From: Flavobacteriales bacterium UBA3364
GTDB lineage: Bacteria; Bacteroidota; Bacteroidia; Flavobacteriales_F; PHOS-HE28
Direction: 5' to 3'
NCBI GenBank assembly: GCA_002360495.1
Contig: DEQO01000066.1
Location: forward strand, 10,563 to 74,562
Length of the DNA: 64,000 nt
In this document: one piece after another, positions 10,286 to 62,549 of the stretch
Position numbering within the stretch: the first letter of the stretch is position 1
Layout of the letters: every line of letters begins with the position of its first letter
Notes under the pieces: model-generated
Told to the model about the DNA's origin: nothing
The model's database searches: none
What the model saw: only the letters and a program-made list of their open reading frames with translations
Made by a program: the position numbers and the translations under genes

Positions 10286-11110
10286 CTATTGCGGACCGTT
10301 CCCGGATAGTGGAACGATCGGATCGCCGGTCCGAAGCGAACCGCTGTCGGGCCCCATCGCGTTCATCCCGAAATCCACTTTCACTTCACCTTCCGAACCT
10401 GCACGACGACGATAGGTCGCCAGTGTGCGGGTCGGTTCCTTGCTGCGCTCGCCGGTGAATTGGTCGGTGGTCGGGATCACACAACGGCCGCATGGTTTCA
10501 CCAATGTGAAAGGTGCCGGGCCGATGCTGATCTTCTTCCAGCCGTCCTCTTGGAAAGCGGAACCACCGCCGATCACGAGGTTCGGCCGGAACCGGTCCAT
10601 GGGGATCGCCTTGGCCATGCGACCGTTAAGGTCGTCGAGCGATGCTTGTGAGAGGATGAGGTAGGGGAAGCCGTCGCTCAAGGAGGTGATGCCCGTCGCA
10701 TAGCGCGTATCGACCGGCCGATGGGTACTATCGGGCATGAAGGCCAGCGAACAGGTCGCATCGAGCTTCTCCGCGAACCACGCCGAAACAGCGGCCGGGG
10801 AATGGACCACGTCGACCTCGTCGGAGAACACCCGGGCCCGTGATGTTGGCCCGTGGGCGGGCCCGAAGGTCAGATCGACGTGATCGCCATCGCGCACATC
10901 GGTGACGCGGAATCCGTTCTCGAGCGGTGAGCAATGCAAGCAGGCCATCACAGGCATTTCGCGTTGCGTGATGAACGTGCCGTTCGCATCCACCAGCATC
11001 CAGCGCCGGTCGTGTTCCAGCCCGCGGTCCGTCAAACGGGCGGTAGCCACTTGGAACCCTCCGAGCGACTTGATCGGGTACACATGTATCGAGGCCAGCG
11101 AAAGGCTCAT
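10286..11110 (-). CDS. MOSC domain protein (YcbX-like, without C-terminal ferredoxin domain)
   Basis: ORF 10286..11200; start moved to ATG 11110 (MSLSLASIHVYPIKSLGG, the classic MOSC N-terminal beta-barrel start). RFRPNLVI and KPCGRCVIPT motifs are present. The start overlaps the upstream stop (ATGA). Confidence 0.85.
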   Translation of the reverse strand: MSLSLASIHVYPIKSLGGFQVATARLTDRGLEHDRRWMLVDANGTFITQREMPVMACLHCSPLENGFRVTDVRDGDHVDLTFGPAHGPTSRARVFSDEVDVVHSPAAVSAWFAEKLDATCSLAFMPDSTHRPVDTRYATGITSLSDGFPYLILSQASLDDLNGRMAKAIPMDRFRPNLVIGGGSAFQEDGWKKISIGPAPFTLVKPCGRCVIPTTDQFTGERSKEPTRTLATYRRRAGSEGEVKVDFGMNAMGPDSGSLRTGDPIVPLSGNGPQ

Positions 11111-47800: not shown

Positions 47801-50800
47801 CCGACCTGACGGACCAGGGTGATCTCTTCACACCGGAGAACAACTGGGCCGGTATCACGCGGCGCATCACCACAACGGATTTCGAGGCCAGCAACATCGA
47901 GACGATCCAGTTCTGGGTGATGGATCCGTTCTACAACGCGAGCAACAGTGCCGGGGAGCCGGCCACGAACGTGAACTCGGTCAACAGCACTGGTGGTGAC
48001 CTCTATATCAACCTGGGGAACATCAGCGAGGACATCCTGCGTGATGGGCGCAAGAGTTTTGAGAACGGTCTGCCCAATGCGCCAGATGATGTCTCCCAAG
48101 AAACGGACGAGACCGTCTGGGGTGTCGTGCCGACCACCCAGAGCGTGGTGAACGCCTTCGCCATTGCCCAAGGGGACAACAACAGCAACCGCTTCCAGGA
48201 TGTCGGGCAGGATGGCCTCGCGAGCCCGGCAACGGGGATCGCCGGAAGGGACGAGTCCGTTTTCTTCGCGGATTACCTGAACACCCTGAACCCCGGCGCG
48301 CGCAACCGGTGGCAGACGGACCCCTCCAACGACGATTACCACTTCTTCCGCGGCTCTGATTATGATGCCGACGGTTTGGACGTGCTGGAGCGCTACAAAC
48401 GGTTCAACGATCCGGAGGGCAACAGCATCACCGACGAGGATGCGCAGGAGAATTACCCCACACAACAGACCACCCTGCCTACCACGGAAGACATCAACCA
48501 GGACCAGAACCTTTCAGAGAACGAGAGCTATTGGCAATACAAGATCCCATTGAAACCTGCGGACATGGTCGTGGGCCGGGGTTTCATCACCGACCGGATC
48601 CTGGGCACGGCCAATACGCCCGAAGGTCCCAAGCAAGTGTACTGGTACCAGTTCAAGGTACCGGTGAAACAACCCACCGATGTGATCAATGGGATCCAGG
48701 ATTTCCGCAGCATCCGGTTCCTGCGGATGTTCATGCACGGCTGGCAGCAGGAGGCCACGCTACGCTTCGCACGCTTCGAGTTCGTCCGCGGCGAATGGCG
48801 GAAGTACTTGCAGACCTTGCAGACCCCGGGCGAGGTGATCCCTGGCGACCCCGACCCAACACTGTTCGAGATCGCCGCGGTGAACATCGAGGAGAACGGC
48901 AACCGAACGCCCATCAACTATGTGCTGCCGCCCAACATCAACCAGGAGATCGATGTGGCCAGTGCGAACCTGCGTAACCTGAACGAACAATCGCTGCAGT
49001 TGCGGGTATGCAACCTGCCCGATGGGGATGCGCGTGCCGGCTTCCGCAATGTGCAGTTCGATATCCGCAGCTACAAGAAGCTGCGCATGTACATCCACGC
49101 CGAGTCGCGTGACGCCAACTTCCCGATCGAGTACGGTGATGCCACCGTGTTCGTGCGGTTGGGCAATGACCTCGATCAGAACTACTACGAATACGAGGTG
49201 CCAGTGGTGCCTTCGCAGTTCTTCAACCGCGACCCGTTCAGTGTCTGGCCCGAGGCGAACAACATGATCATCGAGTTCGCCAAACTGAACGACCTGAAGA
49301 TCCAACGTGACCAGTCGGGCGCTTCGCGCACGGATCGTTATGCCGGCAGCGATGGCGACCGCCGTGTGTTCGTGAAGGGGAACCCGAACCTGAGCCAGAT
49401 GCGTTCGATCATGATCGGTGTTCGCAACCCGAAGAAGGAGGGTGACGAGGCCAATCCATGGAAGCAGGACGACGGCCTGCCGAAGTGCCTTGAGGTGTGG
49501 GTGAACGAACTACGCTTGACCGATTTCGACCAGAGCGGTGGCTGGGCTACACTGGGGCGTGTGAACGCGCAACTGGCCGACCTGGGGAACGTGAGCGTGG
49601 CCGGTAATTACAGCACGCCCTTCTGGGGCAGCATCGACAAGCGGGTAAGCGAGCGCCAGCGCGAAACGAAGTACGGCGTGGACGTGAGCGCCAACCTGGA
49701 GATGGGCAAATTCCTACCGGAGGCCAGCCAGGTGAAAGTGCCGCTGTACATCGGGTATACCGAGCAGATCAGCGATCCGCAGTTCGATCCCTTGAACCCG
49801 GACATCCTGTTCACCGATGCGACCCGAACGCTATCCAAGGATGAGCGAAAGGAACGCAAGAAGCTCACCCAGACCTACACACGGAGACGGAGCATCAACC
49901 TCACCAACGTACGCAAGGAGCGGGAACAGGGTAGCAAGGAGCAGTTCTTCGATGTGGAGAACCTGAGCTTCAACTATGCCTATGGTGACCAGGAGTACCG
50001 CGACGTGAACACGGCCTACGAGAACACCCGCACGTACCGGGGTTCGATCGCGTACGTGCACAACCCGAAGCCCCGCCCGATCGAACCTTTCGCGGACGTG
50101 GGCTTCGTGAGCAAGAGCAAATGGCTGAAGCTGGTGAAGGATTTCAACGTGAACATGGGCTTCAAGCAGATAACCATGCGCACGGCCGTCGACCGGAGCT
50201 ATCTGGAACGCCTGGTCCGCCCCAACCCGGACATCGAGACCCTGCCACCGACCCCCACCTACAACAAGCACTTCAACTGGAACAGCCAGTACGGCTTCCG
50301 GTACGACATCACCAAGTCGTTGAAGGTGGATTTCAATGCGAACAACATGGCCTTCATCGGGGAGACCCCGGGCCGTGTGAACGCCAAGTCCGGGAACGAT
50401 TATGACCTGTGGAAGGATAGCGTTCTGACAAGTATCAGGAACTGGGGAGAACCATCGCACTACGATCACACGATCGGCATCACCTACACACTGCCGCTGG
50501 ACAAATTCCCGCTCACCGACTGGCTTACGGTGAACACGGGGTATACCGCAGGATATCAGTGGGACCGCGCGCCACTGACGCAGGATTCATTGGGTGCGGT
50601 GATCCAGAACTCCCAGAACATCTCGGTGAACGGTCAGCTGAACTTCGTCAACCTCTACAACAAGTCGAAGTTCCTGAAGAAGGTGAACGACAAAGGCAAA
50701 GGGCGACCGGCGAAAGCGGGCGGCGGCAAGACGAGTGTGGCCAAACCGGACTCCACGGCGAAGCAACCGAAAGGCGAGCCGTTCAACATCCTCGAAGCCT

Positions 50801-52158
50801 TCGCCCGCGTTATCATGATCGTGCGCACCGGCACCGTGACCTACAGCCAGACATCAGGTATCCTGCTGCCGGGCTACTCAAGGGCGACCAACATCATCGG
50901 GATGGACAACTTCGGGGCTCCGGGCTTCGGGTTCATCACGGGTCAGCAGAACCACGACCTCAGTGGCGACATCGTGCGCGACTTCGCGACCAGCGCCTCG
51001 CAGCGTGGATGGCTGGTCACCACACCGTCGATCTTCAATCCGTACACGAACGCGCGGAACGAGACCTTCAATGCGCGGCTCAGTTTGGAACCGTTCAGGG
51101 GCATGCGCATCGAACTGATGGCCAACCGGACCAAGGCCGACAACAACAGTTCCTTCTTCCGCTACAACAACGAGGAACAGCGGTATGTCAACGACAGTCC
51201 ACGGGATGCGGGAAGCTTCAGCGTTAGCATGCTGAACTGGCGCACCACTTTCTCCAAGGACGACAAGAACTTCGTGAACCAGGTCTTCCAGAACCTGCTG
51301 GACAACCGCACGGTCATCAGTTCCCGCCTGGGGGCCGCAGCCGGTCTGGCGTTGGATCCGGGCACGGGCTATGTCCAAGGGTACGGCCCAACGAACCAGG
51401 ATGTCGTCATACCATCTTTCCTGGCCGCCTACACCGGCAAGAGCGCGGAGAACGTGAAGCTGGACCCCCTCACCTTGGTGCCCGCACCGAACTGGGATGT
51501 GACGTACGACGGCCTCACCAAGATCGCCATGTTCGAGAAGATGTTCCGCACCTTCACGGTGAAGAACAGCTACCGCTCCACGTTCAACGTCTCCAGCTAC
51601 CAGACCAACCTCCTCTACACGGAAGGAGCAGGGGTGACGGACGATGCGGGCAACTTCATCCCGGAACGCCAGATCGCCGTGGTCACGATCCAGGAAGTGA
51701 TGCGTCCGCTGCTGGGCTTCGACGCCACCTTGAAGAACAGCCTGCTGGCGAAGTTCGAATACAACAGGGACCGCAACCTCAGCCTCAGCCTCACGAACAA
51801 CCAGGTCACCGAAGTGCGCGGCAAGGAATATGTCGTGGGTACAGGCTATCGGTTGAAGGATGTGAAATTCCCCTTCGCGATCGGCGGCAATACCCCGAAG
51901 AGCGATCTGAACCTGAGGGTCGATCTGAGCCTTCGCGACAACGCCACGGTCATCCGCAAGATCCAGGAGGAGCAGAACCAGGTCACGGCCGGGCAGAACA
52001 TCATCTCCATAAAGACCTCCGCGGATTACGTGGTCAACCAGCGGCTCAACGTCCGGGCCTTCTATGAACGCGTGATCAATACCCCGGTGATCTCCACCTC
52101 CTTCCCCTCGGCCAACACCAACGCGGGGATCAGCCTGCGGTTCACGTTGGCGCAGTAG
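44878..52158 (+). CDS. sprA: T9SS translocon / gliding-motility protein SprA
   Basis: Single 2426-aa ORF with an N-terminal signal/TM and beta-rich, Asn/Tyr/Gly-rich sequence throughout. Its size and its position between ruvA and gcvH match SprA of Bacteroidota. Confidence 0.9.
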   Translation: MTSYLIPKRLWGMLGRIVLLAVMAGAADDVKGRALLYTALVMQVDSPEVQLQFPLTDPLTPGAPSTGNINLADPDNIRNEVIYDPVTGQYIMQSSVGGSFDYRPPMSLSLDEYLNYDMQRSMENYWLDRVEEDSQSAQKELIPAIKVRGEAFDRIFGGNTIDIKPRGSAEVIFGINISKTENPRIPINQRRITTFNFDQRIQLNLVGNIGEKLKINTNYNTQATFDFENQVKLDYTGYEDEIIQKIEAGNVSLPLRGTLIQGSQSLFGLKTELRFGRLTATAIFSQEKGQRRNVQSQGGAQTTNFDIKADEYEANKHYFLNYFFRDRYDAAMRTLPTVNSGALIQRIEVWVTNTRQDFQQTRNIVAFTDLGEDASAASIAAGHISTGLPPGLVQDGPGDRADNAANTLYQQVSTNTGITGFENSSEALQQLGLVASRHFEKLESARLLTPSEYTVNQRLGFITLNQQLNNDEVLAVAYQYTLDGITYQVGQFAQDGVFTGTDPGGGTGTQEPQGTEALVLRLLKATITNPRIPLWDLMMKNVYSLGAFQVNEDKFRLDLIYNNPVTGVDVNYIPLAPLDQIPLIQSLGMDRLDPNNAPNPDGWFDFIDNAATTGGTIQSQSGRVYFTVLEPFGSYLDAQLVGVPPEIKRTIVYQQLYDSTKVAAQNIPELNRFRLKGSYRSASSDVISLNSVNIPQGSVSVTAGGVKLIENQDYTVDYNLGRVRILNQGILESGTPINIALESNSLFSIQTKTLAGARFDYKINKDFIIGGTVMNLYERPLTQKVNVGEEPIRNTMLGLDANWQSKSQWLTDMVDKLPFYATKQESNVTASLEAAYLIPGHSRAIGNAGTSYIDDFEGSVSVIDLRTQSLWFHAAVPQGQFSLFPEGELVNDLGAGFRRARLSWYVIDPLFFRNNELTPANISNSTSIRSDNRMREVLEQEVFPNRQLAAGTPTNIPVLDLTYYPSERGPYNYNPDLTDQGDLFTPENNWAGITRRITTTDFEASNIETIQFWVMDPFYNASNSAGEPATNVNSVNSTGGDLYINLGNISEDILRDGRKSFENGLPNAPDDVSQETDETVWGVVPTTQSVVNAFAIAQGDNNSNRFQDVGQDGLASPATGIAGRDESVFFADYLNTLNPGARNRWQTDPSNDDYHFFRGSDYDADGLDVLERYKRFNDPEGNSITDEDAQENYPTQQTTLPTTEDINQDQNLSENESYWQYKIPLKPADMVVGRGFITDRILGTANTPEGPKQVYWYQFKVPVKQPTDVINGIQDFRSIRFLRMFMHGWQQEATLRFARFEFVRGEWRKYLQTLQTPGEVIPGDPDPTLFEIAAVNIEENGNRTPINYVLPPNINQEIDVASANLRNLNEQSLQLRVCNLPDGDARAGFRNVQFDIRSYKKLRMYIHAESRDANFPIEYGDATVFVRLGNDLDQNYYEYEVPVVPSQFFNRDPFSVWPEANNMIIEFAKLNDLKIQRDQSGASRTDRYAGSDGDRRVFVKGNPNLSQMRSIMIGVRNPKKEGDEANPWKQDDGLPKCLEVWVNELRLTDFDQSGGWATLGRVNAQLADLGNVSVAGNYSTPFWGSIDKRVSERQRETKYGVDVSANLEMGKFLPEASQVKVPLYIGYTEQISDPQFDPLNPDILFTDATRTLSKDERKERKKLTQTYTRRRSINLTNVRKEREQGSKEQFFDVENLSFNYAYGDQEYRDVNTAYENTRTYRGSIAYVHNPKPRPIEPFADVGFVSKSKWLKLVKDFNVNMGFKQITMRTAVDRSYLERLVRPNPDIETLPPTPTYNKHFNWNSQYGFRYDITKSLKVDFNANNMAFIGETPGRVNAKSGNDYDLWKDSVLTSIRNWGEPSHYDHTIGITYTLPLDKFPLTDWLTVNTGYTAGYQWDRAPLTQDSLGAVIQNSQNISVNGQLNFVNLYNKSKFLKKVNDKGKGRPAKAGGGKTSVAKPDSTAKQPKGEPFNILEAFARVIMIVRTGTVTYSQTSGILLPGYSRATNIIGMDNFGAPGFGFITGQQNHDLSGDIVRDFATSASQRGWLVTTPSIFNPYTNARNETFNARLSLEPFRGMRIELMANRTKADNNSSFFRYNNEEQRYVNDSPRDAGSFSVSMLNWRTTFSKDDKNFVNQVFQNLLDNRTVISSRLGAAAGLALDPGTGYVQGYGPTNQDVVIPSFLAAYTGKSAENVKLDPLTLVPAPNWDVTYDGLTKIAMFEKMFRTFTVKNSYRSTFNVSSYQTNLLYTEGAGVTDDAGNFIPERQIAVVTIQEVMRPLLGFDATLKNSLLAKFEYNRDRNLSLSLTNNQVTEVRGKEYVVGTGYRLKDVKFPFAIGGNTPKSDLNLRVDLSLRDNATVIRKIQEEQNQVTAGQNIISIKTSADYVVNQRLNVRAFYERVINTPVISTSFPSANTNAGISLRFTLAQ

Positions 52159-53168: not shown

Positions 53169-54101
53169 ATGGCTACCAAGACATTGACCGTCCGCCGTAC
53201 GGCGGGCATGCCCGACCCGCGCACCACGCCGACCATCGACCAGGTCGGCATCGAAGAGCGCGTGGCCCGCATCAAAACGCGCAGCATCAAGAAGGAGACC
53301 AAGGTGCAGGGCATGAAGCTCGCGCTGAGCATGATCGATCTCACGACGCTTGAAGGTGCCGATACACCGAGCAAGGTGAGGCAGCTTTGCTACAAGGCCA
53401 TGCATCCGCATGATGCACTGCCGGGGCTTCCGAATTGCGCCGCCATCTGCGTTTATCCTTCACTGGTGAAAGTGGCGAAGAAGGCGCTCGGCGATAGCGG
53501 TGTGAAAGTGGCCAGTGTTTCAACGGCCTTTCCGAGTGGACAAGCGCCGCGCAACGTGAAGATCACGGACACCAGGTTCGCCGTGAACGAAGGCGCCGAC
53601 GAGATCGACATGGTGATCAGTCGTGGTCACTTCCACAGCGGCGACTACAACTTCGTTTACGACGAGATCGCCGCCATCAAGGAAGCGTGCGGCGATGCAC
53701 GGTTGAAAGTGATCCTCGAGACAGGCGAGCTCGGCACCTACGACAAGGTGCGTCTCGCCAGTGACATCGCCATTGCAGCCGGCGCCGACTTCATCAAGAC
53801 CAGCACGGGCAAGATCAATCCGGCGGCAACCATGGAAGTGACGCTCGTGATGTTGCACGCCATCCGCGACCACTACCTGAAGACCGGGCAGATGATCGCG
53901 ATGAAGCCCGCCGGTGGCATCCGCAAAAGCAAGGAGGCGCTGCACTACCTGATGATGGTGAAAGAGGAGCTCGGCCCCGAATGGCTGAGCAACCACTGGT
54001 TCCGTTTCGGCGCGAGCAGTCTGGCCAACGACATCCTGATGCAATTGCAGAAGGAAGCCGACGGGCACTACCAGAGCGCGGACTATTTCAGCCTCGACTG
54101 A
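53169..54101 (+). CDS. deoC: deoxyribose-phosphate aldolase (long form)
   Basis: ATG 53169 within ORF 53091..54101. Motifs IDLTTLEGADT, EIDMVISRG, DFIKTSTGK (Schiff-base Lys) and MKPAGGIR. Confidence 0.9.
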   Translation: MATKTLTVRRTAGMPDPRTTPTIDQVGIEERVARIKTRSIKKETKVQGMKLALSMIDLTTLEGADTPSKVRQLCYKAMHPHDALPGLPNCAAICVYPSLVKVAKKALGDSGVKVASVSTAFPSGQAPRNVKITDTRFAVNEGADEIDMVISRGHFHSGDYNFVYDEIAAIKEACGDARLKVILETGELGTYDKVRLASDIAIAAGADFIKTSTGKINPAATMEVTLVMLHAIRDHYLKTGQMIAMKPAGGIRKSKEALHYLMMVKEELGPEWLSNHWFRFGASSLANDILMQLQKEADGHYQSADYFSLD

Positions 54102-54423
54102 GCTTGATCGGCGCAACCCTTCTCATCGAGCGCCTCATCGAAACGACGCTGTATCGAATTTGCTGCTTCATCCCATTGCATTCGATCTACTGGCAGACTT
54201 GGGCTTGAGCTCCCAGCCGTCCATCAAGATCATCACCCTGCCCACCCAAGGCACCGCTTCGCTGGTCGCGGTGATGGATCAACACGGGACTAGGAACATG
54301 ATGGTCACCTGCTTTGGAGGGTGCCATTGAGATGCGGTGTGCACAACTTGCGTGAAGAAATACGGTGTTCACCGTACACGTGCATATATCGGATCTCCGC
54401 ATCTTCGCACAAGCACAAGCAAC

Positions 54424-55881
54424 ATGAACCACATTACCCGCAGTCTTTTTCTTATCGGCACCACTCTGGCGATCTCCATCACTGGTGCGCAGACCCCCAC
54501 TCATCAGCACGTTCAGCACAACACCGTGGGCAGTTCGCAGAGCGAGGTGAACGGCGTGGCGCACGACAGCCAGGGCAACATGATCGTGTGCGGTGGCCGA
54601 ATGGATGCCCTCGACTTCGGCGGCACGGCCCATGAGGCGGGCACGGGTGGGATCTTCGTTGCGAAGTTCGGTCCGGGCGGCTCCGAGATCTGGAGCAAGA
54701 TCGCCGGTTCGGCTGAGACCATGGGCAACCACAAAGCCATGTCCGTTGCTGTGGACGGCAGTGACAACGTCTATGTGGCCGGCTGGCTCTTCGTGGCCCA
54801 GGCAGCCACCTTCGATGGTACCACATTGCCTGCAGGCAGTCTGGGATTCGTAGCCAAGTATTCAGCATCCGGCACCCTGACCTGGGTGAAGGAGTTCTCT
54901 GCGAACGTGAACGCTATAGCGGTGGACGGCAACGGAGTTCCTTTCATCAACCTGGGCGATCAAACGATCCTGAAATTGGACCCGGCGAATGGCAGCGAAA
55001 CGGCCAGCGGCGCGGGCGGCGGCGACCTGATGAACGTGCTCTACCACAACATCGTGGTGGACGGTTCGAACAATATCATCGCCCAATGGGGCAACAAGAT
55101 CCGGAAGTACGACAACGCACTGAACGAGATCTGGAGCACGCCGTTGGTCAAGGCCTTCGGCGCCGAGTCATTCCGCATCAGTGTGGACAACAACGGCCTG
55201 GTCTGGGCATCGTTCTATGCGGTGTTCGGAACTGTGACCTTGGCGGGCACTGACTACACCACGTTCCCCAACGGTTACATCTATCACCTGGATGGTGCTG
55301 ATGGAGGCGTGATGGGCTGCGTGGTGCTCACGCCCGGCGGCACCGCCAGCAAGCCCCAGGAAGTGATCAACGACGGCAGTTCCAACCTCTACGTGAGCGG
55401 CACGTTCGCCTTCAATGCGCCCTATATCGTGAAGGTGGATCCGTCGTTCACGACGATCTGGAGCGTGCCGACCTTCAACGTGGAGGATATGGACGTGCAA
55501 GGCCTCGATTGCCTGCTTATCGGTGGGAGTCACGCAGCCGACATCACTCTTGATGGCACGACCTACACGCGGCCGAACGGCTCGGGCCAGGACAATGCGA
55601 TGGCAGCGTACCTGTGCGCTGGAGGTGTTGGCATGGATGAGCAGGGTGCGGTGGATGTGACCGTATTTCCGAATCCAACAGATGGTCTCATCGCCCTTCA
55701 GATCCCCGCGCAAGCGATCGGATCCAACTATCAGGTGGTTGACCTTACTGGATCCGAAGCATTGACCGGGCGGGTAACGGGTCGGTCGATGGACCTCGAC
55801 CTGTCATCGTTGGCGGGTGGCTGCTATGTGCTTAAGATCGTGGGGGCAGGCATTGCACCGGTCCGGGTGGTGAAGCAGTAG
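54424..55881 (+). CDS. SBBP/beta-propeller-repeat T9SS cargo protein
   Basis: ATG 54424 within ORF 54337..55881. Signal peptide, repeated ..VAVDGSDNVYVAG.. / ..IAVDGNGVPFIN.. units, and CTD VTVFPNPTDGLIALQI...GCYVLKIVGAGIAPVRVVKQ. Confidence 0.75.
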   Translation: MNHITRSLFLIGTTLAISITGAQTPTHQHVQHNTVGSSQSEVNGVAHDSQGNMIVCGGRMDALDFGGTAHEAGTGGIFVAKFGPGGSEIWSKIAGSAETMGNHKAMSVAVDGSDNVYVAGWLFVAQAATFDGTTLPAGSLGFVAKYSASGTLTWVKEFSANVNAIAVDGNGVPFINLGDQTILKLDPANGSETASGAGGGDLMNVLYHNIVVDGSNNIIAQWGNKIRKYDNALNEIWSTPLVKAFGAESFRISVDNNGLVWASFYAVFGTVTLAGTDYTTFPNGYIYHLDGADGGVMGCVVLTPGGTASKPQEVINDGSSNLYVSGTFAFNAPYIVKVDPSFTTIWSVPTFNVEDMDVQGLDCLLIGGSHAADITLDGTTYTRPNGSGQDNAMAAYLCAGGVGMDEQGAVDVTVFPNPTDGLIALQIPAQAIGSNYQVVDLTGSEALTGRVTGRSMDLDLSSLAGGCYVLKIVGAGIAPVRVVKQ

Positions 55882-55966
55882 GCGGCCAGGCGTGATCTTG
55901 GATCAATGCGCCCCCCGATCACCACATGATGTGCACCAACGCATCCAATAGGCCGAGGCGATCTGC

Positions 55967-56068
55967 TTCCGCTTCGGCGCCAGCAGCCTTGCCAACGACA
56001 TCCTGATGCAGTTGCAGAAGGAAGCCGACGGCCACTACCAGAGCGCGGACTATTTCAGCCTCGACTGA
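55967..56068 (+). pseudogene. orphan second copy of the last 33 codons plus stop of deoC
   Basis: 102 nt aligning base-for-base with 54000-54101 (6 mismatches). It encodes the identical FRFGASSLANDILMQLQKEADGHYQSADYFSLD* but has a stop codon 6 codons upstream and no deoC body. Confidence 0.85.
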
Positions 56069-56078
56069 CGCATCGATC

Positions 56079-56570
56079 ATGACCGACCTCCGACCCCTTT
56101 TCGTGAAGATGGCCCTGGACGCATGGGGCAGGGAAGTGAGCGCCACGAGCACCCTGCTCGGGAAGCTGTCCGATGACCAGGTGATGAAGGAGGTGTCACC
56201 GGGCAGGAACCGCGGCATCTACCTCCTCGGCCACCTCACCGCCGAGCACGACCAGATGCTTGCATTGCTGCGCTTCCAGGAGGTGATGCATCCGGAGCTC
56301 AAGCCGGTGTTCATCGACGCACCTGACCGCGCGGTCGCCGCGCTGCCTTCCATGCACCAGCTCCGCGAGCAGTGGACGACGGTGAACGACACGTTATTGG
56401 ATCACGCGAAGCGCCTGCCACCGGAGGAATGGTTCACGCGCCATGCGAACATCTCTGCAGATGACTTTCCGAAGGAGCCGCACCGCAACCGGCTGAACGT
56501 TCTGCTGAGCCGCACGAACCACCTGGCCTACCACCGCGGGCAGCTGGTATTGCTGGCGGAGAAGGGATAG
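56079..56570 (+). CDS. DinB-superfamily protein
   Basis: 163 aa, four-helix-bundle-like, with His positions typical of DinB/YfiT (LLGHLTAEHD ... NHLAYHRGQL). Confidence 0.8.
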   Translation: MTDLRPLFVKMALDAWGREVSATSTLLGKLSDDQVMKEVSPGRNRGIYLLGHLTAEHDQMLALLRFQEVMHPELKPVFIDAPDRAVAALPSMHQLREQWTTVNDTLLDHAKRLPPEEWFTRHANISADDFPKEPHRNRLNVLLSRTNHLAYHRGQLVLLAEKG

Positions 56571-56596
56571 GCCGGGAGACACCCGATCTTCGCCGG

Positions 56597-57277
56597 ATGG
56601 ATCACTCGCATTCCCCGAAGTTCGTCGCCTACCGGCCGGCACGCGTGGACGCTGCCGAGATGCGTGACCGTGCGAAGCGATTCCACGAGTTGCTCGCCGG
56701 CCGCCGGAGTGTCCGGCATTTCAGTGAAGAGCCCGTTCCGATCGAGGTCATCGAACACCTGGTCCGAACGGCCGGCACGGCGCCAAGCGGTGCGCACAAG
56801 CAGCCCTGGACCTTTTGCGTGGTAACGGACCCTGCGTTGAAGCACGCCATCCGCAAAGCCGCGGAAGAGGAGGAGCGTGCGAGCTACGAAGGTCGCATGC
56901 CGCCTGAATGGCTGGAGGATCTGGCACCACTCGGCACGGACTGGCACAAGGAGTTCCTGGACATCGCCCCGTGCCTGATCGTGGTGTTCAAGCGCGCCTA
57001 TGAAGTGATGCCCGATGGTTCGAAGCGCAAGAACTACTATGTGGAGGAGAGCGTTGGCATAGCCAGTGGTTTCCTCCTTGCGGCCGCCCGGAACGCGGGA
57101 CTCGTCACGCTCACGCACACGCCCAGCCCCATGAATTTCCTGGCCCGAATCCTGCAACGGCCGGAGAACGAGCGGGCCTTTCTGTTGATCCCGGTCGGTT
57201 ACCCCGCGGCTGATTGCGAGGTGCCGGACCTGCAGCGCAAGGCCCTTGATCAGGTCATGGTGCGGTACGGAAGCTGA
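56597..57277 (+). CDS. iodotyrosine-deiodinase-like flavin nitroreductase
   Basis: RRSVRHFS FMN-binding start. The block EEEERASYEGRMPPEWLEDLAPLGTDWHKEFLDIAPCLIVVFK and the end LLIPVGYPAADCEVPDLQRKALDQVMV closely follow the IYD-subfamily pattern as I recall it. Confidence 0.8.
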   Translation: MDHSHSPKFVAYRPARVDAAEMRDRAKRFHELLAGRRSVRHFSEEPVPIEVIEHLVRTAGTAPSGAHKQPWTFCVVTDPALKHAIRKAAEEEERASYEGRMPPEWLEDLAPLGTDWHKEFLDIAPCLIVVFKRAYEVMPDGSKRKNYYVEESVGIASGFLLAAARNAGLVTLTHTPSPMNFLARILQRPENERAFLLIPVGYPAADCEVPDLQRKALDQVMVRYGS

Positions 57278-57352
57278 ACCCGTACCGCCTGTTGCCCGGC
57301 CCTCTGCCTTCGCACATCGCGTCATCGCCATTCTGGCTTCGGCGTGTGATAG

Positions 57353-57764
57353 ATGACAACCAAGAAGAAGCGGCCCTCGATCGGACCCTCGCACCCGCCT
57401 CGGGTCCAAGGACCATGTCCGCACCTCACCGCTTTTTACCAGCTCTATCGATCGCAAGCGGGTGAAGCCGAGTTCCGGTAAGTACTTCGGTACGATCAAC
57501 CCCGCAAACGAGCATGAGCTCGCGTGCATCGCCAACGCGAATGAAGCCGATGTGGGTGCCGCATCCGTGATGGCGCTTGGATCGGGGTGCGATCCGGACA
57601 GGCGTGCCTCATCCAAGGACTCAGCGGCTAGCTGGTATTGCGTGGGCACACGGTTGCAGGCCAAGGACCTACCAGGACGCATCGTGTTGTTCACACTCCA
57701 ACCCGTTCTCCGATGTGTATGCGAGGGGCCATCGCTCCGCACCCTGAAACACACCTTCAAATGA
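57353..57764 (+). pseudogene. aldehyde dehydrogenase 5' remnant, copy A (multiple frameshifts)
   Basis: ATG ACA ACC AAG AAG AAG..., then across frames ALDRTLAPASGSKDHVRTSPLFTSSIDRKRVKPSSGKYFGTINPANEHELACIANANEADV. This is the ALDH N-terminal signature, and no catalytic domain follows. Confidence 0.75.
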
Positions 57765-58975
57765 GAACATATTCCGCTTTCAGCGCACTTATCCTGGCAT
57801 CCGGCCTTGCCGCCCAATGGAGCCAGATGAACACCGGTCTCGCCACGCTCGATCACGGCGCTGCCATACATGGCGCAACGCCGAACTACATCTTCGCCAG
57901 GGCTTACAACGTGCTGTACCGGAGTGATGACCATGGTGGAACATGGACCTCGGTGCCCAGCCCGAGCACGTGGGGGCCTTCGGATGTGGGCTACTATTAC
58001 AATGATCGTTATGTGGTGGGAACGAGCGCGATCGGGACCTGCCTCCACTACTCGGACAACGAAGGCAATTCCTGGTCACCCGCCACCGGGGGGCCAACGG
58101 CAACAGCGGTGCGGGGTTTCTTCGAGTATGGTGAGGCGTTGTACGCTTACACGGACCAGCAGGGCATCTATCGCACCCTGGACGGTGCAGCGTGGACCGC
58201 GGTGAACAGTGGCCTTACTTCCCTGGACGTGGTGGGCATGGCGGCGGTGGGGCCATACTTCGTAGCAGCGACGAATGGTGGTGGTGTGTTCCGCACCATC
58301 AACGCAAGTTCCTGGACGCAGGCGACCGGCATTGGCAGTGCTGACCTGGATGGTGAACATGTCTGGCAGATGGGCGGCAACGTGCACTATTCCGCACAAG
58401 GGGGTGTAACGTACCGTAGCACCGACATCGGCCTGACGTTCACCGAATGGACGGCGCCGGCGTTCTTCGGCGTCGGGCTGGAGGAAGTGAAGCGCTTCGG
58501 CAGCAACAACCTGTACATGGAAACGCGTCATTTCGCAGGTGGTGAACGGGACAGCCTTTATCGTTCCACGAACAACGGTGGGGCCTGGACCAACATCACC
58601 GGTAACCTCGATGCCGCCGACCTTCGCGGGAGCGGCATCTTCGAGTACGATGGCTATGTGTTCATCGCGTACACCATGGGTTCCCTAGAGGGGATCTACC
58701 GCTATACGCTTTCCACAGGGATCGCCGATGCGGAACGCCTCGAGGCGGTGACGGTCTTTCCGAATCCCACCAGCGACAACGTCATGATCAAGCTGCCTTT
58801 CGTGCATGGTGCGGAGCGTTACACACTTCATGATGCGTTGGGTGCGCAGATCAGTGCTGGCACTGTTACATCGACCGCGATGCAGCTCGACCTCTCCGGT
58901 GTAGGACCCGGTTGCTACCTGCTGCGTTGGGACGATGCACTGCTCGCTCCGGTGCGCCTGGTGAAACAGCGCTGA
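57761..58975 (+). CDS. BNR/sortilin-like beta-propeller T9SS cargo protein (paralogue 1)
   Basis: ATG 57761 within ORF 57638..58975. Signal peptide, repeated S.D.G.(T/S)W motifs (RSDDHGGTWTSV, SDNEGNSWSPA, STNNGGAWTNI) and CTD VTVFPNPTSDNVMIKL...LLRWDDALLAPVRLVKQR. Confidence 0.8.
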   Translation: MRTYSAFSALILASGLAAQWSQMNTGLATLDHGAAIHGATPNYIFARAYNVLYRSDDHGGTWTSVPSPSTWGPSDVGYYYNDRYVVGTSAIGTCLHYSDNEGNSWSPATGGPTATAVRGFFEYGEALYAYTDQQGIYRTLDGAAWTAVNSGLTSLDVVGMAAVGPYFVAATNGGGVFRTINASSWTQATGIGSADLDGEHVWQMGGNVHYSAQGGVTYRSTDIGLTFTEWTAPAFFGVGLEEVKRFGSNNLYMETRHFAGGERDSLYRSTNNGGAWTNITGNLDAADLRGSGIFEYDGYVFIAYTMGSLEGIYRYTLSTGIADAERLEAVTVFPNPTSDNVMIKLPFVHGAERYTLHDALGAQISAGTVTSTAMQLDLSGVGPGCYLLRWDDALLAPVRLVKQR

Positions 58976-59045: not shown

Positions 59046-59612
59046 TCACTTCTTCGCTTGATCCCCGGCACCGCCCATCATGCCCAACTGCTCCATCATC
59101 TTCATCTCCTCCATGTAGCCCCAGTGCTCCACGATCTTCCCGTTCTCGAACCGGAGGATGTCCACGCAGTTCACGTCGACGGACGCATTGGTGGCCGGCA
59201 TGCCTTCGCCCATCGCGCCGGTGTTCTTTCCCTTCCAACGGTAATGCAGGATCACACGGTCGCCTTCAGCGGTCAAATGCAGGTCCTCCGCTTTGTTCTC
59301 GGAAAAGGCCGCGCTGGACATGGCGATCATGTCTTTCAGTTTCTGCACGCCGGTGCTGGTAACGCCCGGCATGGACATATGGGTCGTGAAGCTCTCGGCC
59401 ACGACCGCGTCAAGGCCATCGGTCTTTCCGGTCCACCAGGCGTCGAGGAAGCCTTGGGCGGCCTGCTTCATTTGATCCGCGGTGGCCTTGTTGGCGCTGT
59501 CGGCTGTGAGCATGGCCTGGTGGTCGGCCATCATCTTGTCATGCTCCGGATGGGAGCCGCCGCAAGCGACGAGCATCGCCAGCGGGAAAGCGAGGAAAAG
59601 GTGTTTGGTCAT
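59046..59612 (-). CDS. SnoaL-like (ester cyclase family) lipoprotein
   Basis: ORF 59046..59678; start moved to ATG 59612 (MTKHLFLAFPLAMLVACGG lipobox). C-terminal DVNCVDILRFENGKIVEHWGYM is typical of the SnoaL-like fold. Confidence 0.65.
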   Translation of the reverse strand: MTKHLFLAFPLAMLVACGGSHPEHDKMMADHQAMLTADSANKATADQMKQAAQGFLDAWWTGKTDGLDAVVAESFTTHMSMPGVTSTGVQKLKDMIAMSSAAFSENKAEDLHLTAEGDRVILHYRWKGKNTGAMGEGMPATNASVDVNCVDILRFENGKIVEHWGYMEEMKMMEQLGMMGGAGDQAKK

Positions 59613-59726: not shown

Positions 59727-60179
59727 ATGCCTGCCGGTCCCTACCATTGGTTCCTCAACACCCTCGTGCGCGTACATGTCTCGTGCGATGAGGGCGCCGA
59801 CCACGTCTCCTACATCGAGCACCATGTGCGCAAGGGGGAGTCACCGCCGCTGCACATCCACGAGCGGGAGGACGAGATCTTCCACCTGATCGCGGGCGAA
59901 TTCACTTTCCGGCAAGGCGATACCGACGTGAGGAAAGGACCGGGCGATGTGATCTTCATTCCCAAGGGCACGCCGCACACCTTCTGCTGCGATTCAGCGA
60001 CCGGGCACTTCTTCAGCATCACCACCGGGCGCGACTTCGAGCTTTTCCTTCGCGCCATGTGGCGGCCGGCCGAGCGTGCTGAGTTGCCCACTCCTGTCGC
60101 GCCATCGCCTGCGAACATTGAAGCGTTGGGCAGGGCAGCAGCGGAGCATCACATGCCGGTGGTTGGGCCGCCGCTGTAA
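59727..60179 (+). CDS. cupin domain protein
   Basis: Cupin motifs PPLHIHEREDEIFHLIAGE and GDVIFIPKGTPHTF. Confidence 0.75.
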   Translation: MPAGPYHWFLNTLVRVHVSCDEGADHVSYIEHHVRKGESPPLHIHEREDEIFHLIAGEFTFRQGDTDVRKGPGDVIFIPKGTPHTFCCDSATGHFFSITTGRDFELFLRAMWRPAERAELPTPVAPSPANIEALGRAAAEHHMPVVGPPL

Positions 60180-60208
60180 GTCTCTTCACCTCCCGCTATC
60201 TTGGACCC

Positions 60209-60286
60209 ATGGCCAAAAAGAACGCGATCGATTGGGCCTTGGACTCTGCACCGGAATCGAAGGACCACATCCGCAACAACGGATGA
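60209..60286 (+). pseudogene. aldehyde dehydrogenase 5' remnant, copy B (25 codons)
   Basis: MAKKNAIDWALDSAPESKDHIRNNG* aligns with copy D's MAKKQTLDWTLAPAPESTDYVKINA. It shares the upstream GCTATCTT.GAC.C context, and its TGA overlaps the next ATG. Confidence 0.6.
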
Positions 60287-60779
60287 TATGGCCATTCAGC
60301 TTTGCCACTCAGCAAACCATCATCTGGATCGGCTTCTACCTGGCGTTCGCTTCATGGACTGTGCTGGCTATCCTTCTCTTGAGGCACCTCATCAAGAAGA
60401 CTGGCCCCGCTTCAAGATCACCCTGCTCTACGCGTTGAACAGCCTCAGCTTACTGTTCGCTTACGGAATGATCCTAGCGCTGGCGTTGATCGTTGTTACG
60501 CCTATTGAGGATACACGGGAACACTCCATCGACATCATATGGAACGAGGCCAACCGCTACTTCGCTGACCATTTGCAGTTCGCGGTCATCGCCCTTCTTT
60601 GCTATGTGGTGCTTGACCTGGCGTACATGAAGTACCTCGTGCGTCGATGTGTGACCCGCCATACGCTCATCCTGTTCGTTGCAAATGCAGTGGTGCTCTT
60701 TTCGGCGGTGTACCTATCAGTCGGTTCCTACTACACGGGCATGCTCCAAGAGATAGACCGGTACTTCCTTGGGCGGTGA
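60283..60779 (+). pseudogene. small polytopic membrane protein, apparently frameshifted in a C4 run near 60405-60408
   Basis: The frame of ATG 60283 gives MIWPFSFATQQTIIWIGFYLAFASWTVLAILLLRHLIKKTGP (TM-like), then stops at 60438. The adjacent frame continues RFKITLLYALNSLSLLFAYGMILALALIVV... (TM-like) to 60779. Confidence 0.45.
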
Positions 60780-60812
60780 TGACAAGACCCGTCCCTTCTA
60801 CCTTCGCTCACG

Positions 60813-61048
60813 ATGGCAACCAAGAAGTAAGCCCTCGACCGACAACTCACCCCTGCCCCCGGGTCCCAGGCCTTGTTCACATCTCACCACATCACAGGCT
60901 CTTCATCAACGGCAAGTAGGTGGAGCCCAAGAGCAGGAAGTACTTCGGCACGATCGACCTGGTCAATGACAGGATGATGGTGTGCGCGAACACGTCCTCA
61001 CGCCCGCGGTCCGGTGAACGAGCTCTCCACAATGCTTATCATCGCTGA
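60813..61048 (+). pseudogene. aldehyde dehydrogenase 5' remnant, copy C (two nonsense codons and a frameshift)
   Basis: MATKK*ALDRQLTPAPGS..., then a frameshift, then LFINGK*VEPKSRKYFGTIDLVNDRMMVCANTSS. There is a TAA at codon 6 and a TAG where Trp of LFINGKW is expected. Confidence 0.75.
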
Positions 61049-61061
61049 AATTCCGATCCGC

Positions 61062-62297
61062 ATGTCCATGCTGCTACGTTCGTTGATCCTCGTTCCGACC
61101 GTTTGCGCGCTCTACACGCAGGCCCAATGGACACAGGTCAATTCGGGCATCACCGACCTGGCCCAAGGTGCCACTGTGCTGGGAGCCACGAACGACCATT
61201 TGATCGCCAGGGCCGGATGGAACATGTACCGCAGTTCGAATGATGGCGATACGTGGTCGTCGATCCAGCCTCCCGTCGCCTTCAATAGCACCGAGTGCGG
61301 CTATTTCCGAGCGGGACGCTATTTCGCTGGAATGAGCGCGTCCGGCGATTGCATCTACTTCACGAACGACAATGGCGGCACATGGAACCCGGTGACCGGG
61401 GCACCGACAGCCACGGTCGTCAGGGGATTCCACGAGTTGGGCACCGGGCTGTACGCGTACACCTCCAACTTGGGCATCTACCGATCCTTGAACAACGGCG
61501 ATTCTTGGCAGGCCGTGAATGTGGGCCTCTCCAACCTCAACGTCTTCTCGATGGGCTCCAGCGGTACGCACCTGTTCGCTTGCACCATCGGTGATGGCGT
61601 CTTCGTTAGTACCGATGCCGGTGCGAGCTGGTCACCCTCCAATGCTGGGATCGCCAAGGGCGACCTGAACGGAGAGCATGTGTGGAGAATGGGAAACGAG
61701 ATGTACTACACGGCGCAGGGTGGTGGCAAATACCGGAGCACGGATCTCGGCGCCAACTGGTCGGTCTGGGCATGGCCTTCGTTGTTCGGCGTCGGTCTGC
61801 TCGAAGTGGAACGCTTCGGTGGCAACCTCTATATCGAAACACGCCACTTCACCGGTGCATATCGCGATAGCGTGTACACCTCGACGGATGAAGGTCAGGG
61901 CTGGACCAACATCACGGGGAACCTCGACGCGGCGGACCTCAATGGTTCTGGATTGGTCGAGTTGAACGGCTATCTCTTTCTCGGATACAACGTGATCTCC
62001 CCCGGGGAAGGCATCTATCGCCGCGGTATCGCAACGGGCATCGACGACCTCATCCCCGCAGCGGAACAGTTACCCGCTGTCTATCCGAACCCGGCGCATG
62101 ACCTGTTGACGCTACAGGCATCGTTGCAGCATGGTCCAATGAAGTACGCACTGGTGGACATTGCCGGGGCAGTAGTGCTGAACGGGTCGATGACAAGTGC
62201 CACGGAGGTCTGCGATGTCTCTGCCCTTGCGCCAGGTGCTTATTTGCTCCAGTGGAATGATGGAATGGTTCCGCCGGTCCGCATCATCAAGCAGTAA
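61062..62297 (+). CDS. BNR/sortilin-like beta-propeller T9SS cargo protein (paralogue 2)
   Basis: ATG 61062 within ORF 61014..62297. Colinear with 57761..58975 along its whole length (e.g. GEHVWRMGNEMYYTAQGG vs GEHVWQMGGNVHYSAQGG; WTNITGNLDAADL is identical). CTD is AVYPNPAHDLLTLQ...LLQWNDGMVPPVRIIKQ. Confidence 0.8.
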   Translation: MSMLLRSLILVPTVCALYTQAQWTQVNSGITDLAQGATVLGATNDHLIARAGWNMYRSSNDGDTWSSIQPPVAFNSTECGYFRAGRYFAGMSASGDCIYFTNDNGGTWNPVTGAPTATVVRGFHELGTGLYAYTSNLGIYRSLNNGDSWQAVNVGLSNLNVFSMGSSGTHLFACTIGDGVFVSTDAGASWSPSNAGIAKGDLNGEHVWRMGNEMYYTAQGGGKYRSTDLGANWSVWAWPSLFGVGLLEVERFGGNLYIETRHFTGAYRDSVYTSTDEGQGWTNITGNLDAADLNGSGLVELNGYLFLGYNVISPGEGIYRRGIATGIDDLIPAAEQLPAVYPNPAHDLLTLQASLQHGPMKYALVDIAGAVVLNGSMTSATEVCDVSALAPGAYLLQWNDGMVPPVRIIKQ

Positions 62298-62360
62298 CGG
62301 AAGGGGGTAGAGCGTCAGCGCTCCGCGCTTCTGCGCGTGTGCCTTGGCTATCTTCGACAC

Positions 62361-62549
62361 ATGGCCAAGAAACAAACCCTCGACTGGACCCTCGCCCCCG
62401 CCCCCGAGTCCACCGACTACGTCAAGATCAACGCCCAATACAAGCTCTTCATCAACGGCAAGTGGCAGAAACCCAATAGAGGACAACGGGCGGGGATCAT
62501 CAAGTGGACCGGCGCCATGATTCCCCCACTGGATGCCGACCACTGCTGA
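62361..62549 (+). pseudogene. aldehyde dehydrogenase 5' remnant, copy D (best preserved)
   Basis: MAKKQTLDWTLAPAPESTDYVKINAQYKLFINGKWQKP is intact for about 38 codons, then loses ALDH similarity and stops at 62549. No ALDH body follows. Confidence 0.8.

Follow-up and report, generated by a model that had tools for sequence, protein, structure and literature searches.

A probably recombinase-free hotspot of gene gain between deoC and ALDH in uncultured Flavobacteriales, marked by displaced gene ends

We describe here a gene-gain hotspot that lies between deoC (deoxyribose-phosphate aldolase) and an aldehyde dehydrogenase gene (ALDH) in a clade of uncultured Flavobacteriales and that appears to operate free of a recombinase. 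The most recent insertion can be read in the window, by which we mean the whole 64,000-nt stretch of DNA analyzed; a segment carrying a T9SS cargo gene is placed there between an intact deoC and a second, displaced copy of the deoC 3' end. This arrangement is probably the product of additive integration, namely one homologous crossover in a conserved gene end together with one illegitimate junction.

The intact deoC (53169..54101, plus strand) scored 187.7 bits with TIGR00126 (cut-off, 117.3) and also matched PF01791; it forms the left-hand anchor of the hotspot, and its product is 84-96% identical in amino acids to those of 29 related Flavobacteriales MAGs. Its last 33 codons plus stop (copy A; 54000..54101, plus strand) are repeated at 55967..56068 on the same strand (copy B), and the pairwise alignment of 54000-54101 with 55967-56068 has 102 columns and no gaps. 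The two copies differ at six sites (repeat positions 6, 15, 21, 24, 45, and 66), every one of which is a synonymous difference at the third codon position, and both are translated to FRFGASSLANDILMQLQKEADGHYQSADYFSLD*. An earlier sequence-only reading of the window had reported this gap-free duplicate and its six synonymous differences, and our re-alignment matched it exactly. The copies are in direct orientation by both the alignment and a repeat scan, and the longest identical block common to them is 36 nt (54066-54101 / 56033-56068). Copy B is a displaced tail remnant of deoC: it has no start codon, is matched by a deoC-tail profile with an E value of 7e-25, which is far above chance, and is preceded six codons upstream by an in-frame TAG (55949-55951), while its stop codon (56068) is followed after 10 nt by the ATG of the next gene (56079); the stop upstream and the 10-nt spacing had both been noted previously. 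The claim that similarity to deoC is absent before 55967 holds in substance, but the edge of the match lies at ~55963; namely, the repeat finder carried the match 4 nt further, to 53996/55963 (CTGg vs CTGc; 106 nt, 93%), and no deoC similarity was seen upstream of ~55963 when the window sequence was read directly. The CTG at 55963-55965 is the same as that at 53996-53998 in deoC and may represent microhomology at the junction 55966/55967.

The inserted segment begins with a non-coding leader of 322 nt (54102..54423, plus strand), in which no open reading frame with coding-like GC3 was found, in agreement with the ~320 nt of non-coding DNA described before. Then follow a T9SS cargo gene of 485 aa (54424..55881, plus strand), described as an SBBP-like beta-propeller with a type A C-terminal sorting domain, and a 3' flank (55882..55966, plus strand) that ends at the illegitimate junction 55966/55967. 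The sorting domain was barely over threshold (PF18962, 27.6 vs 27; TIGR04183, 25.6 vs 23), and the gene can be kept as a T9SS cargo gene; the SBBP match, however, was below threshold, and that part of the earlier description did not stand. Homologues of this cargo gene are 54-69% identical and occur in varied genomic contexts. The closest one (69% aa, 77% nt) is located on L088, 82 nt 3' of a deoC tail, a donor-like arrangement that agrees with the proposed horizontal arrival from a relative. When the non-coding flanks of the insert were aligned to L088, no usable homology was obtained and the donor breakpoint was not located; neither flank (322 and 85 nt) had a match in the relatives by blastx or blastn. 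An Rfam search of 53800-56300 gave no match, and neither did a promoter/terminator scan (sigma-70-like promoters included) or a search for TAnnTTTG 5' of the cargo gene.

Had copy B been free to decay, differences that are all synonymous would be improbable, which argues that the copies diverged within functional deoC genes. In a codon-aware test on the 33 codons, six synonymous differences out of six had P = 5e-5 to 4e-4 if all changes are neutral and P = 5e-4 to 6e-3 if the tail was duplicated in place and constraint acted on the intact copy alone. The pattern is that of a young scar between two functional alleles and supports the earlier proposal that the copies separated in different lineages, each within a working deoC; it is likely that the segment 54102-55966 (1,865 bp) was acquired from a related Flavobacteriales lineage. 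When the six sites were polarized with 26 relatives, both alleles were common at most sites, and resident and donor alleles are not assignable to copies A and B from the available relatives. In protein look-ups, the exact deoC protein of the window was present only in SRR1168486, and no conspecific genome with an empty site or a donor arrangement was found, the next-best DinB being 76% identical.

The neighborhood of deoC in other genomes places the insertion in a longer history. In more distant Bacteroidota, which served as an outgroup, ALDH directly follows deoC in 51/51 loci (gap, 32-2886 nt; median, 181). Within the close clade, ALDH is found 46 nt after deoC in one relative (L005), and seven other relatives have a deoC-ALDH gap of 1.6-4.8 kb; across the Flavobacteriales clade of the window the gap ranges over 0-4.8 kb, and the genes in it are almost entirely non-shared. 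The interval thus combines what is expected of a hotspot, namely conserved flanking genes that are adjacent in relatives and a high gene turnover between them. The sequence-only reading had taken deoC-dinB as the original junction. These genes are indeed contiguous in L012, and deoC-dinB would be the immediate precursor of the present arrangement, but the older junction is deoC-ALDH. In L012, moreover, dinB has the intact deoC on its 5' side and a decayed deoC tail on its 3' side; it is itself an earlier insert. Tail remnants were not found just 5' of dinB in L001, L008, and L015, and in two further relatives (L091-L094) T9SS cargo genes adjoin dinB with no remnants.

The rest of the window's island consists of genes interspersed with 5' heads of ALDH. 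Copy B is followed by two genes of older island content, both assigned by family match: a DinB_2 gene (56079-56570, plus strand) and a nitroreductase gene (56597-57277, plus strand). The former, together with the above-cut-off TIGR00126 match of deoC, bears out the gene identities given earlier. The first ALDH head (57351..57574, plus strand; nhmmer E = 6.8e-39) matches the intact ALDH of L021 with 75% nucleotide identity over 219 nt, and it precedes a second T9SS cargo gene with BNR/Sortilin-like and sorting domains (57713..58975, plus strand; family match), a SnoaL-like gene on the minus strand (59046-59612), and a cupin gene on the plus strand (59727-60179), the latter two also inside the island. 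The second head (60207..60291, plus strand; nhmmer E = 8.7e-9) is decayed, with an in-frame stop in tblastn, and the third (60799..60984, plus strand; nhmmer E = 7.6e-28) also has in-frame stops. A third T9SS cargo gene (61032..62297, plus strand), which is a paralogue of the second (repeat family D2), is followed by the fourth head (62360..62482, plus strand; nhmmer E = 1.7e-25); ~39 codons are intact in this head before the similarity stops, and a stop codon is present at 62547-62549.

Such gene-end remnants recur in the clade. Altogether, 18 were found in 9 of the 30 genomes: six deoC 3' tails by the tail-profile search (window, L003 x2, L010, L012, and L018) and 12 ALDH 5' heads by nhmmer (window x4, L006 x2, L010, L012 x2, L014, L015, and L017). 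Neither kind was found in the 51 outgroup loci. All 18 are on the strand of the intact genes, which is what a single crossover requires. Each remnant has one fixed edge and one event-specific, variable edge; the deoC tails all end at the stop codon and start ~52, 102, 103, 115, 154, and 190 nt before it, and the ALDH heads all begin near the start codon and end ~55 to 215 nt into the gene. The tail starts at -102, -103, and -115 fall within ~13 nt, a mild clustering that purely random breakpoints do not predict. Identity to the intact gene end declines from 97% to 54%, and some remnants contain in-frame stops; the remnants are therefore non-functional and decaying. Third-position differences are in excess in the tail remnants, and that of L010 has two synonymous and one non-synonymous difference. 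Between the intact deoC and the tail remnants, T9SS cargo is found in the window, L003 (x2), L010, and L018 (x2), and DinB in L012. In L003, the remnant nearer to deoC is 78% and the farther one 87% identical, an order opposite to simple accretion with the youngest insert next to the gene. A shared ancestral cassette was examined for L010 and L018, the cargo genes of which are homologous (~70% nt); their remnant edges differ (-103 vs -154). Second ALDH-profile matches in L037 and L061 were not accepted as remnants: they are on the minus strand upstream of deoC, cover internal profile positions 212-298, and were read as paralogous ALDH genes.

No recombinase was found when all eight genes of the window's island and 17 genes from the relatives' islands, which include every gene between an intact deoC and a tail remnant, were scanned one by one, and the absence of a recombinase noted earlier thus extends to the equivalent inserts of relatives. 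Batch scans of 116 downstream proteins and 44 window proteins listed no integrase or transposase among the best 25 families, a depth at which a weak single recombinase match outside the individually scanned genes could escape. Neither a fixed crossover core nor conserved element ends were present, the boundaries varying over ~140 nt (tails) and ~160 nt (heads), and the junction-adjacent sequences of the cassettes are not related to one another. When both strands of each copy were folded as DNA, no attC-type hairpin was seen (z from -0.22 to +0.41 vs shuffled controls), and the repeat scan detected no terminal inverted repeats of the insert. Accordingly, three kinds of element were rejected: a target-site duplication of a transposon or IS (the repeat is 102 nt at 94%, and neither terminal inverted repeats nor a transposase were found), integron gene cassettes (no attC-type fold in either copy and no integrase found), and an integrase-borne element with attB at a gene 3' end (no integrase found in or near the insert and no common repeat boundary).

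For the additive integration that we favor, the incoming DNA would have consisted of the last ~100 nt of a foreign deoC and its downstream sequence. One homologous, RecA-type crossover in the conserved tail, most likely within the 36-nt identical block (54066-54101 / 56033-56068), would have joined this DNA to the resident deoC, and its other end would correspond to the illegitimate junction 55966/55967. The anchor has been duplicated and not lost, which would be most simply explained if a circularized fragment of ~2 kb, closed at the junction 55966/55967, had entered the chromosome by a single (Campbell-type) crossover; an integration bridging two sister chromosomes would be an equivalent route. 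From the precedent in PMC3240628, we infer RecA and a circular or interchromatid intermediate, and the DNA entry route and the donor are likewise putative. As a result, deoC would have remained intact (copy A), with an old or hybrid tail (copy B) displaced downstream beside dinB; with a circle, both copies would be donor/resident hybrids, and the junction-side part of copy B would be donor DNA. Repeated events from both sides of the once-tight deoC-ALDH junction would then have built an island of modules of one to three genes, largely T9SS cargo genes, divided by decaying deoC tails and ALDH heads. An anchor of 102 nt at 94% with a longest block of 36 nt is a poor substrate for RecA, so that such events should be rare. 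The crossover in deoC plus an illegitimate junction, already proposed from the window itself, fits the 18 scars in 9/30 genomes with their one fixed and one variable edge.

The next-best explanation, which we regard as unlikely, dispenses with the circle: in homology-facilitated illegitimate recombination (HFIR) of linear DNA over two sister chromosomes, one end would pair with the deoC tail and the other would join illegitimately upstream on the other chromatid. This predicts the same end architecture as the circle and is not separable from it by sequence alone. Interchromatid integration after transformation is known to produce duplications in S. pneumoniae (PMC3784515), and HFIR is the mechanism proposed for displaced-module arrays in the T6SS of V. 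cholerae and in Rhs loci (PMC5361080). In a direct assay in E. coli, however, duplications arose from circular single crossovers and true HFIR was much rarer (PMC3240628); furthermore, dimer resolution and a replicating target are needed.

Considerably less probable is a site-specific cassette system, in which a recombinase encoded elsewhere would act on sites in the deoC 3' end and the ALDH 5' end and insert small circular cassettes with a replacement gene end, comparable to integrative islands at tRNA or gene 3' ends or to integrons. Tandem modules each bounded by the same gene end (two tails in L003, four heads in the window), the start of three tail remnants within ~13 nt, and the strong skew of the cargo to one class, T9SS substrates, would suit such a system. 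On the other hand, neither the island nor the relatives' cassettes yielded an integrase or transposase, listed families included; the inner edges vary from 52 to ~190 nt (tails) and from 55 to 215 nt (heads); the cassette-end sequences are unrelated; DNA folding of the tail is ordinary on either strand (z between -0.2 and +0.4); a second gene end, unrelated to the first, would also be needed as a site; and the cargo genes are oriented either way relative to the repeat. We thus hold out little expectation of an undescribed trans-acting, integron-like system that shuffles T9SS-cargo genes on small circles in these Flavobacteriales, but if there were one, the T9SS bias, the tandem arrays, and the -102/-103/-115 edges would be designed features and not by-products, and the secreted-protein repertoire would be under integron-like shuffling.

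An in-place origin is very hard to credit; here the deoC tail would have been duplicated locally in this genome, the copies would have diverged, and an unrelated insertion would have come to lie between them, all without horizontal transfer. Both copies share the ending SLD*, which is present in only some relatives; nonetheless, six synonymous differences out of six would be improbable (P = 5e-4 to 6e-3), the identity of copies A and B (96/102) is no higher than that of either with the tails of other species (up to 95/102), and 18 equivalent remnants of two genes in nine genomes with differing neighbors would be left unexplained. An assembly artefact joining two co-occurring strains via the conserved deoC tail is just as implausible: all three assemblies derive from a single read set (SRR1168486), the k=31 Logan contig is interrupted within the 36-nt block of identity, and no conspecific genome from another sample was found in protein look-ups, but 55966/55967 joins non-deoC sequence to mid-tail, for which a de Bruijn assembler needs real reads, a k=127 contig spans both copies with their longest shared block of 36 nt, decayed remnants with stops (54-87% identity), which assembly could not generate, occur in independent MAGs of other samples, and a strain switch inside the tail would still leave the scar real in one strain. 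Indeed, two contigs of sample SRR1168486, the ENA megahit k127 contig and the NCBI MAG contig DAORHW010000001.1, have the same arrangement, and the Logan contig corresponds to window 54072-56062 with both ends within the identical block, a behavior expected of a real repeat.

Returning to additive integration, the evidence that housekeeping recombination drives hotspots free of mobile elements has been mostly statistical. Individual insertions are readable here, and the divergence in the youngest is still purely synonymous, which places its origin in two separate functional alleles. In this uncultured clade of activated-sludge Flavobacteriales, the locus offers a natural series of ~18 events that differ in age, from which the shortest or most diverged workable anchor could be measured. 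It also allows one to ask whether one-sided-homology integration is a general route in Bacteroidota to diversity of the T9SS-secreted repertoire, and "gene-end echoes" might serve as genome-wide search markers of recombinase-free gene gain.

Integrase islands at the 3' ends of tRNA and other genes carry a replacement 3' end, leave the displaced end as a direct repeat, and form tandem arrays. The deoC-ALDH island resembles them in its intact target gene, its displaced end as a direct repeat, and its accumulating arrays, but differs in that no integrase and no fixed crossover core were found, the modules are of one to three genes, and the 5' end of another gene is used just as well. In the "minimal mobile elements" of Neisseria, variable genes between two conserved genes are exchanged by housekeeping recombination in the flanks. 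The term itself occurs in PMC3787668 and PMC1797815, and hotspots without mobile elements are known to diversify via recombination in the core genes that flank them (Oliveira et al. 2017, PMC5635113). These systems and the present locus have in common differing genes between two conserved genes and no mobility genes; the models for those systems invoke double homologous recombination, which is scarless, whereas one illegitimate joint here leaves duplicated gene ends, and single additive events can therefore be read directly.

HFIR goes back to de Vries and Wackernagel 2002 and Prudhomme et al. 2002, as cited in PMC5361080, and is described in PMC3240628. It shares with our locus one homologous anchor, one illegitimate joint, and the gain of relatives' DNA without mobile-element functions; with a linear fragment, however, it is expected to delete recipient DNA between the joints (PMC3240628), whereas the anchor is duplicated here. 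As in the orphan modules of Rhs, CDI, and T6SS loci, new modules enter beside a conserved anchor and older ones are pushed outward, leaving strings of fragments with no integrase, and HFIR has been proposed for those arrays (PMC5361080). Their anchor is the conserved part of a toxin gene and their cargo consists of toxin tips and immunity genes; in contrast, the anchors here are the deoC 3' and ALDH 5' ends of housekeeping genes, with two-sided accretion. The island behaves in the manner of these arrays but does not belong among them, its cargo being T9SS substrates, DinB, nitroreductase, SnoaL, and cupin.

In the lacZ conjugation assay in E. coli, most integrations of DNA with one-sided homology came about when the molecule had been shortened and circularized and then recombined in a single crossover, which duplicated the homologous end (109-950 bp); from true HFIR, a deletion of recipient DNA is expected (PMC3240628). 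That assay used a laboratory plasmid, and the circular intermediate is putative in uncultured Flavobacteriales, where natural events with diverged donors (94% anchor) have converged on one recurrent chromosomal hotspot. In both cases, nevertheless, the insert is flanked by a direct duplication (109-950 bp there, 52 to ~215 nt here), the duplication has one arbitrary edge, integration proceeds without a site-specific recombinase, and the target gene is kept intact. The deoC-ALDH locus is a clean natural example of a known process and does not call for a new mechanism.

The 3′ end of the intact deoC (53169-54101, TIGR00126) is indeed duplicated in the window. In the pairwise alignment, copy A (54000-54101, within deoC) and the displaced copy B (55967-56068) shared 102 gap-free columns with six mismatches at repeat positions 6, 15, 21, 24, 45, and 66, every one at a third codon position and synonymous, and both copies were translated to FRFGASSLANDILMQLQKEADGHYQSADYFSLD followed by the stop codon. 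The repeat described in the sequence-only reading, i.e., a gap-free 102-nt duplicate with six synonymous third-position differences, is thus real. The repeat finder added 4 nt upstream (CTGg at 53996 vs. CTGc at 55963). An in-frame TAG (55949-55951), at which the similarity to deoC ends, was read six codons ahead of copy B as previously noted, and so was the 10-nt spacer between copy B and the ATG of the DinB_2 gene (56079-56570); a nitroreductase gene (56597-57277) and a second T9SS cargo gene (57713-58975) are found further downstream. The identical arrangement was present in DAORHW010000001.1 (GCA_035438145.1; activated-sludge run SRR1168486) and again in an independent k=127 megahit contig. 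Also, a k=31 Logan contig equals window 54072-56062 and breaks inside a 36-nt block identical between the copies, which is the behaviour of a true repeat in such an assembly.

Between the copies lies a single gene (54424-55881, 485 aa), which had been described as an SBBP-repeat T9SS cargo gene. In its product, a T9SS sorting domain of type A narrowly passed the threshold, in support of the cargo assignment, but the similarity to the SBBP propeller was sub-threshold only. Searches of the insert for Rfam families and promoter-like sites gave no match, and the tail DNA showed no secondary structure beyond shuffled controls. The gene for SprA, the 2426-aa T9SS translocon protein, is located at 44878-52158, 1 kb upstream of the deoC-ALDH (aldehyde dehydrogenase) interval, and is followed by gcvH and vanZ; the proximity of this gene to a T9SS cargo-rich island may be a coincidence.

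The exclusively synonymous divergence is informative on the history of the two copies. Random substitutions in the tail sequence are synonymous in only 19-27% of cases, and six synonymous changes out of six would thus be obtained with P = 5e-5 to 4e-4 if both copies were drifting and with P = 5e-4 to 6e-3 if the tail had been duplicated in place with selection on the intact copy only. These low probabilities argue that the copies diverged while each was part of a working deoC, as had been proposed. Copies A and B are identical at 96/102 positions, and either copy matches the tails of other species at up to 95/102; because the tail is so strongly conserved, the former identity is barely above the latter, and polarisation of the six sites with outgroups carries no information. 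Judged from these identities, the donor need not be conspecific, and protein look-ups gave no conspecific genome outside this sample. The inserted gene is a member of a ~480-aa protein family that is common in the clade (54-69% identity) and occurs in different contexts in different genomes. Its closest member (69% aa, 77% nt) starts 82 nt after a deoC tail in L088, a short contig from another sample (L-numbers denote loci of relatives), showing that the donor-type arrangement of deoC followed by cargo exists in relatives.

We then examined the deoC locus in one genome per species by a scan with the deoC protein, which gave 80 loci: 51 from more distant Bacteroidota, labelled mainly as Chitinophagaceae, and 29 from close Flavobacteriales MAGs. 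ALDH starts 32-2886 nt past deoC (median, 181 nt) in 51/51 distant loci. Among the close MAGs in which ALDH lay inside the sequence examined, the gap is 46 nt in L005 and 1.6-4.8 kb in seven others, and the genes in the gap are nearly all different between genomes. The tight spacing outside the clade and the variable gap inside it indicate that deoC-ALDH is an old junction that has become a hotspot in this clade. Within the clade, T9SS sorting domains were found in 20/116 proteins from genes downstream of deoC. Consistent with the earlier remark that no recombinase is present, neither a recombinase nor a transposase was detected in any individually scanned island gene or among the families listed in the batch scans of the 116 downstream proteins and of the window proteins. 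The upstream flank of deoC is also variable, since vanZ is adjacent to deoC in the window, L002, L005, and L011 and is separated from it by ~3 kb in L006, L007, L012, L017-L021, L023, L026, and L028.

Scars comparable to copy B recur in the clade. A nucleotide profile of tails detected extra deoC tails 3′ of the intact gene in the window, L003 (two), L010, L012, and L018, and a profile of ALDH starts detected extra ALDH heads in the window (four), L006 (two), L010, L012 (two), L014, L015, and L017; in total, 18 fragments were found in 9/30 genomes, and the 51 outgroup loci had none. All 18 share the strand of the intact genes. The tails share a fixed end, namely the stop codon, and start ~52, 102, 103, 115, 154, or 190 nt before it, and the heads start around the start codon and end ~55 to 215 nt into the gene. 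Compared with the intact gene end, their identity ranges from 97% (L010) and 94% (window) down to 54%, and in-frame stops in older fragments mark them as decaying, non-functional leftovers. Third-position differences are in excess in the tail remnants, which fits synonymous divergence before insertion and neutral decay after it. Module sequences next to the junctions are unrelated between modules, and the cargo genes occur in either orientation. In the window, the ALDH heads (57351-57574, 60207-60291, 60799-60984, and 62360-62482; direct orientation, “...YKLFINGKW...”, some with in-frame stops) separate modules of 1-3 genes, including two paralogous BNR/Sortilin-type T9SS cargo genes. The window lacks an intact ALDH; directly 3′ of the last head, at the expected place of ALDH, a long ORF (62602-64000, plus strand) with TPR repeats and a transmembrane segment runs off the window end, and its C-terminal part, judged by eye, is apparently class III adenylate/guanylate cyclase-like.

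T9SS cargo occupies the space between the intact deoC and the tail remnants in the window, L003, L010, and L018 (two FG-GAP genes in the last). In L003 (8925-12393), two single-gene cargo modules follow one another on the minus strand, and a deoC tail remnant comes after each of them. Homologous FG-GAP cargo genes (~70% nt) directly follow deoC in L010 (8951-11526) and L018 (8962-11606), and the tail remnants there differ in edge (-103 vs. -154) and identity, and hence age (97% vs. 81%); either a single ancient insertion with later remodelling or separate insertions of related cargo could account for this. In L012, the intervening gene is dinB, whose stop codon is overlapped by a decayed tail (9415-9466). 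The proposal that deoC-dinB was the original junction therefore holds for the state immediately before the event, given that the two genes are contiguous in L012, but dinB is itself an older insert. A seemingly still weaker tail trace is seen in the same place in L001 (~11085-11140), and perhaps a faint one after dinB in the window (56571-56596). The last 3-4 DinB residues differ between genomes exactly after ...GQLVLL, as if a junction had truncated the gene.

The scar is a directly repeated conserved gene end with one edge at the natural limit of homology, the other at an arbitrary position, and no recombinase; an anatomy of this kind would result from one homologous crossover combined with one illegitimate joint. 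The route suggested in the sequence-only reading, with the illegitimate junction at 55966/55967, is supported by this anatomy and by its recurrence, and that reading is hence both supported and extended. A linear fragment replacing the DNA between two joints would delete, not duplicate, recipient sequence, which favours a circle. Furthermore, when Amarir-Bouhram et al. assayed DNA with one-sided homology in E. coli, most integrations came from single crossovers of circular molecules that had been shortened, with duplication of 109-950 bp of the homologous end, and true homology-facilitated illegitimate recombination (HFIR) was much rarer (PMC3240628). By analogy with that outcome, we favour a circularised ~2-kb fragment as the intermediate. 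The circle would have consisted of a deoC tail, the leader, the cargo gene, and its flank, closed at 55966/55967, and its crossover with the resident tail would most probably have fallen within the identical 36 nt; both copies would then be hybrids, with the first 66 nt of copy B being donor DNA. Speculatively, recombination between the two tails could release the cassette with a tail as a circle that might enter any related genome.

Some observations fit the single crossover of a circle poorly: for RecA, the anchor is both short and imperfect, three tail edges cluster within ~13 nt, and the remnant nearer deoC in L003 is more diverged than the farther one (78% vs. 87%). Integration bridging sister chromosomes would give the same product and has precedent (PMC3784515), but is the less probable route. 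A site-specific cassette system acting in trans would be compatible with such clustered edges but is improbable, given tail starts spread from ~52 to 190 nt before the stop codon. DprA is a widespread protein that loads RecA onto incoming single strands, and two relatives have a gene of the DprA family (DNA_processg_A) within a few kb 3′ of deoC (probably L023 10002-11111 and L028 10113-11222, assuming that a 369-aa family common to both loci is DprA); this location may be without meaning.

Among known systems, an integrase island, an integron, and a transposon were each rejected, their defining features having been tested and not found. The process at deoC works like one-sided-homology integration, whether by HFIR or by single crossover. 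It also works like the Rhs, CDI, and T6SS displacement arrays, where HFIR is the proposed mechanism (PMC5361080). By definition, the locus further qualifies as a transfer hotspot that lacks mobile elements and has core genes on both sides (PMC5635113). The deoC-ALDH interval thus represents no new kind of system but a known process, of which it is a new and unusually legible natural example.
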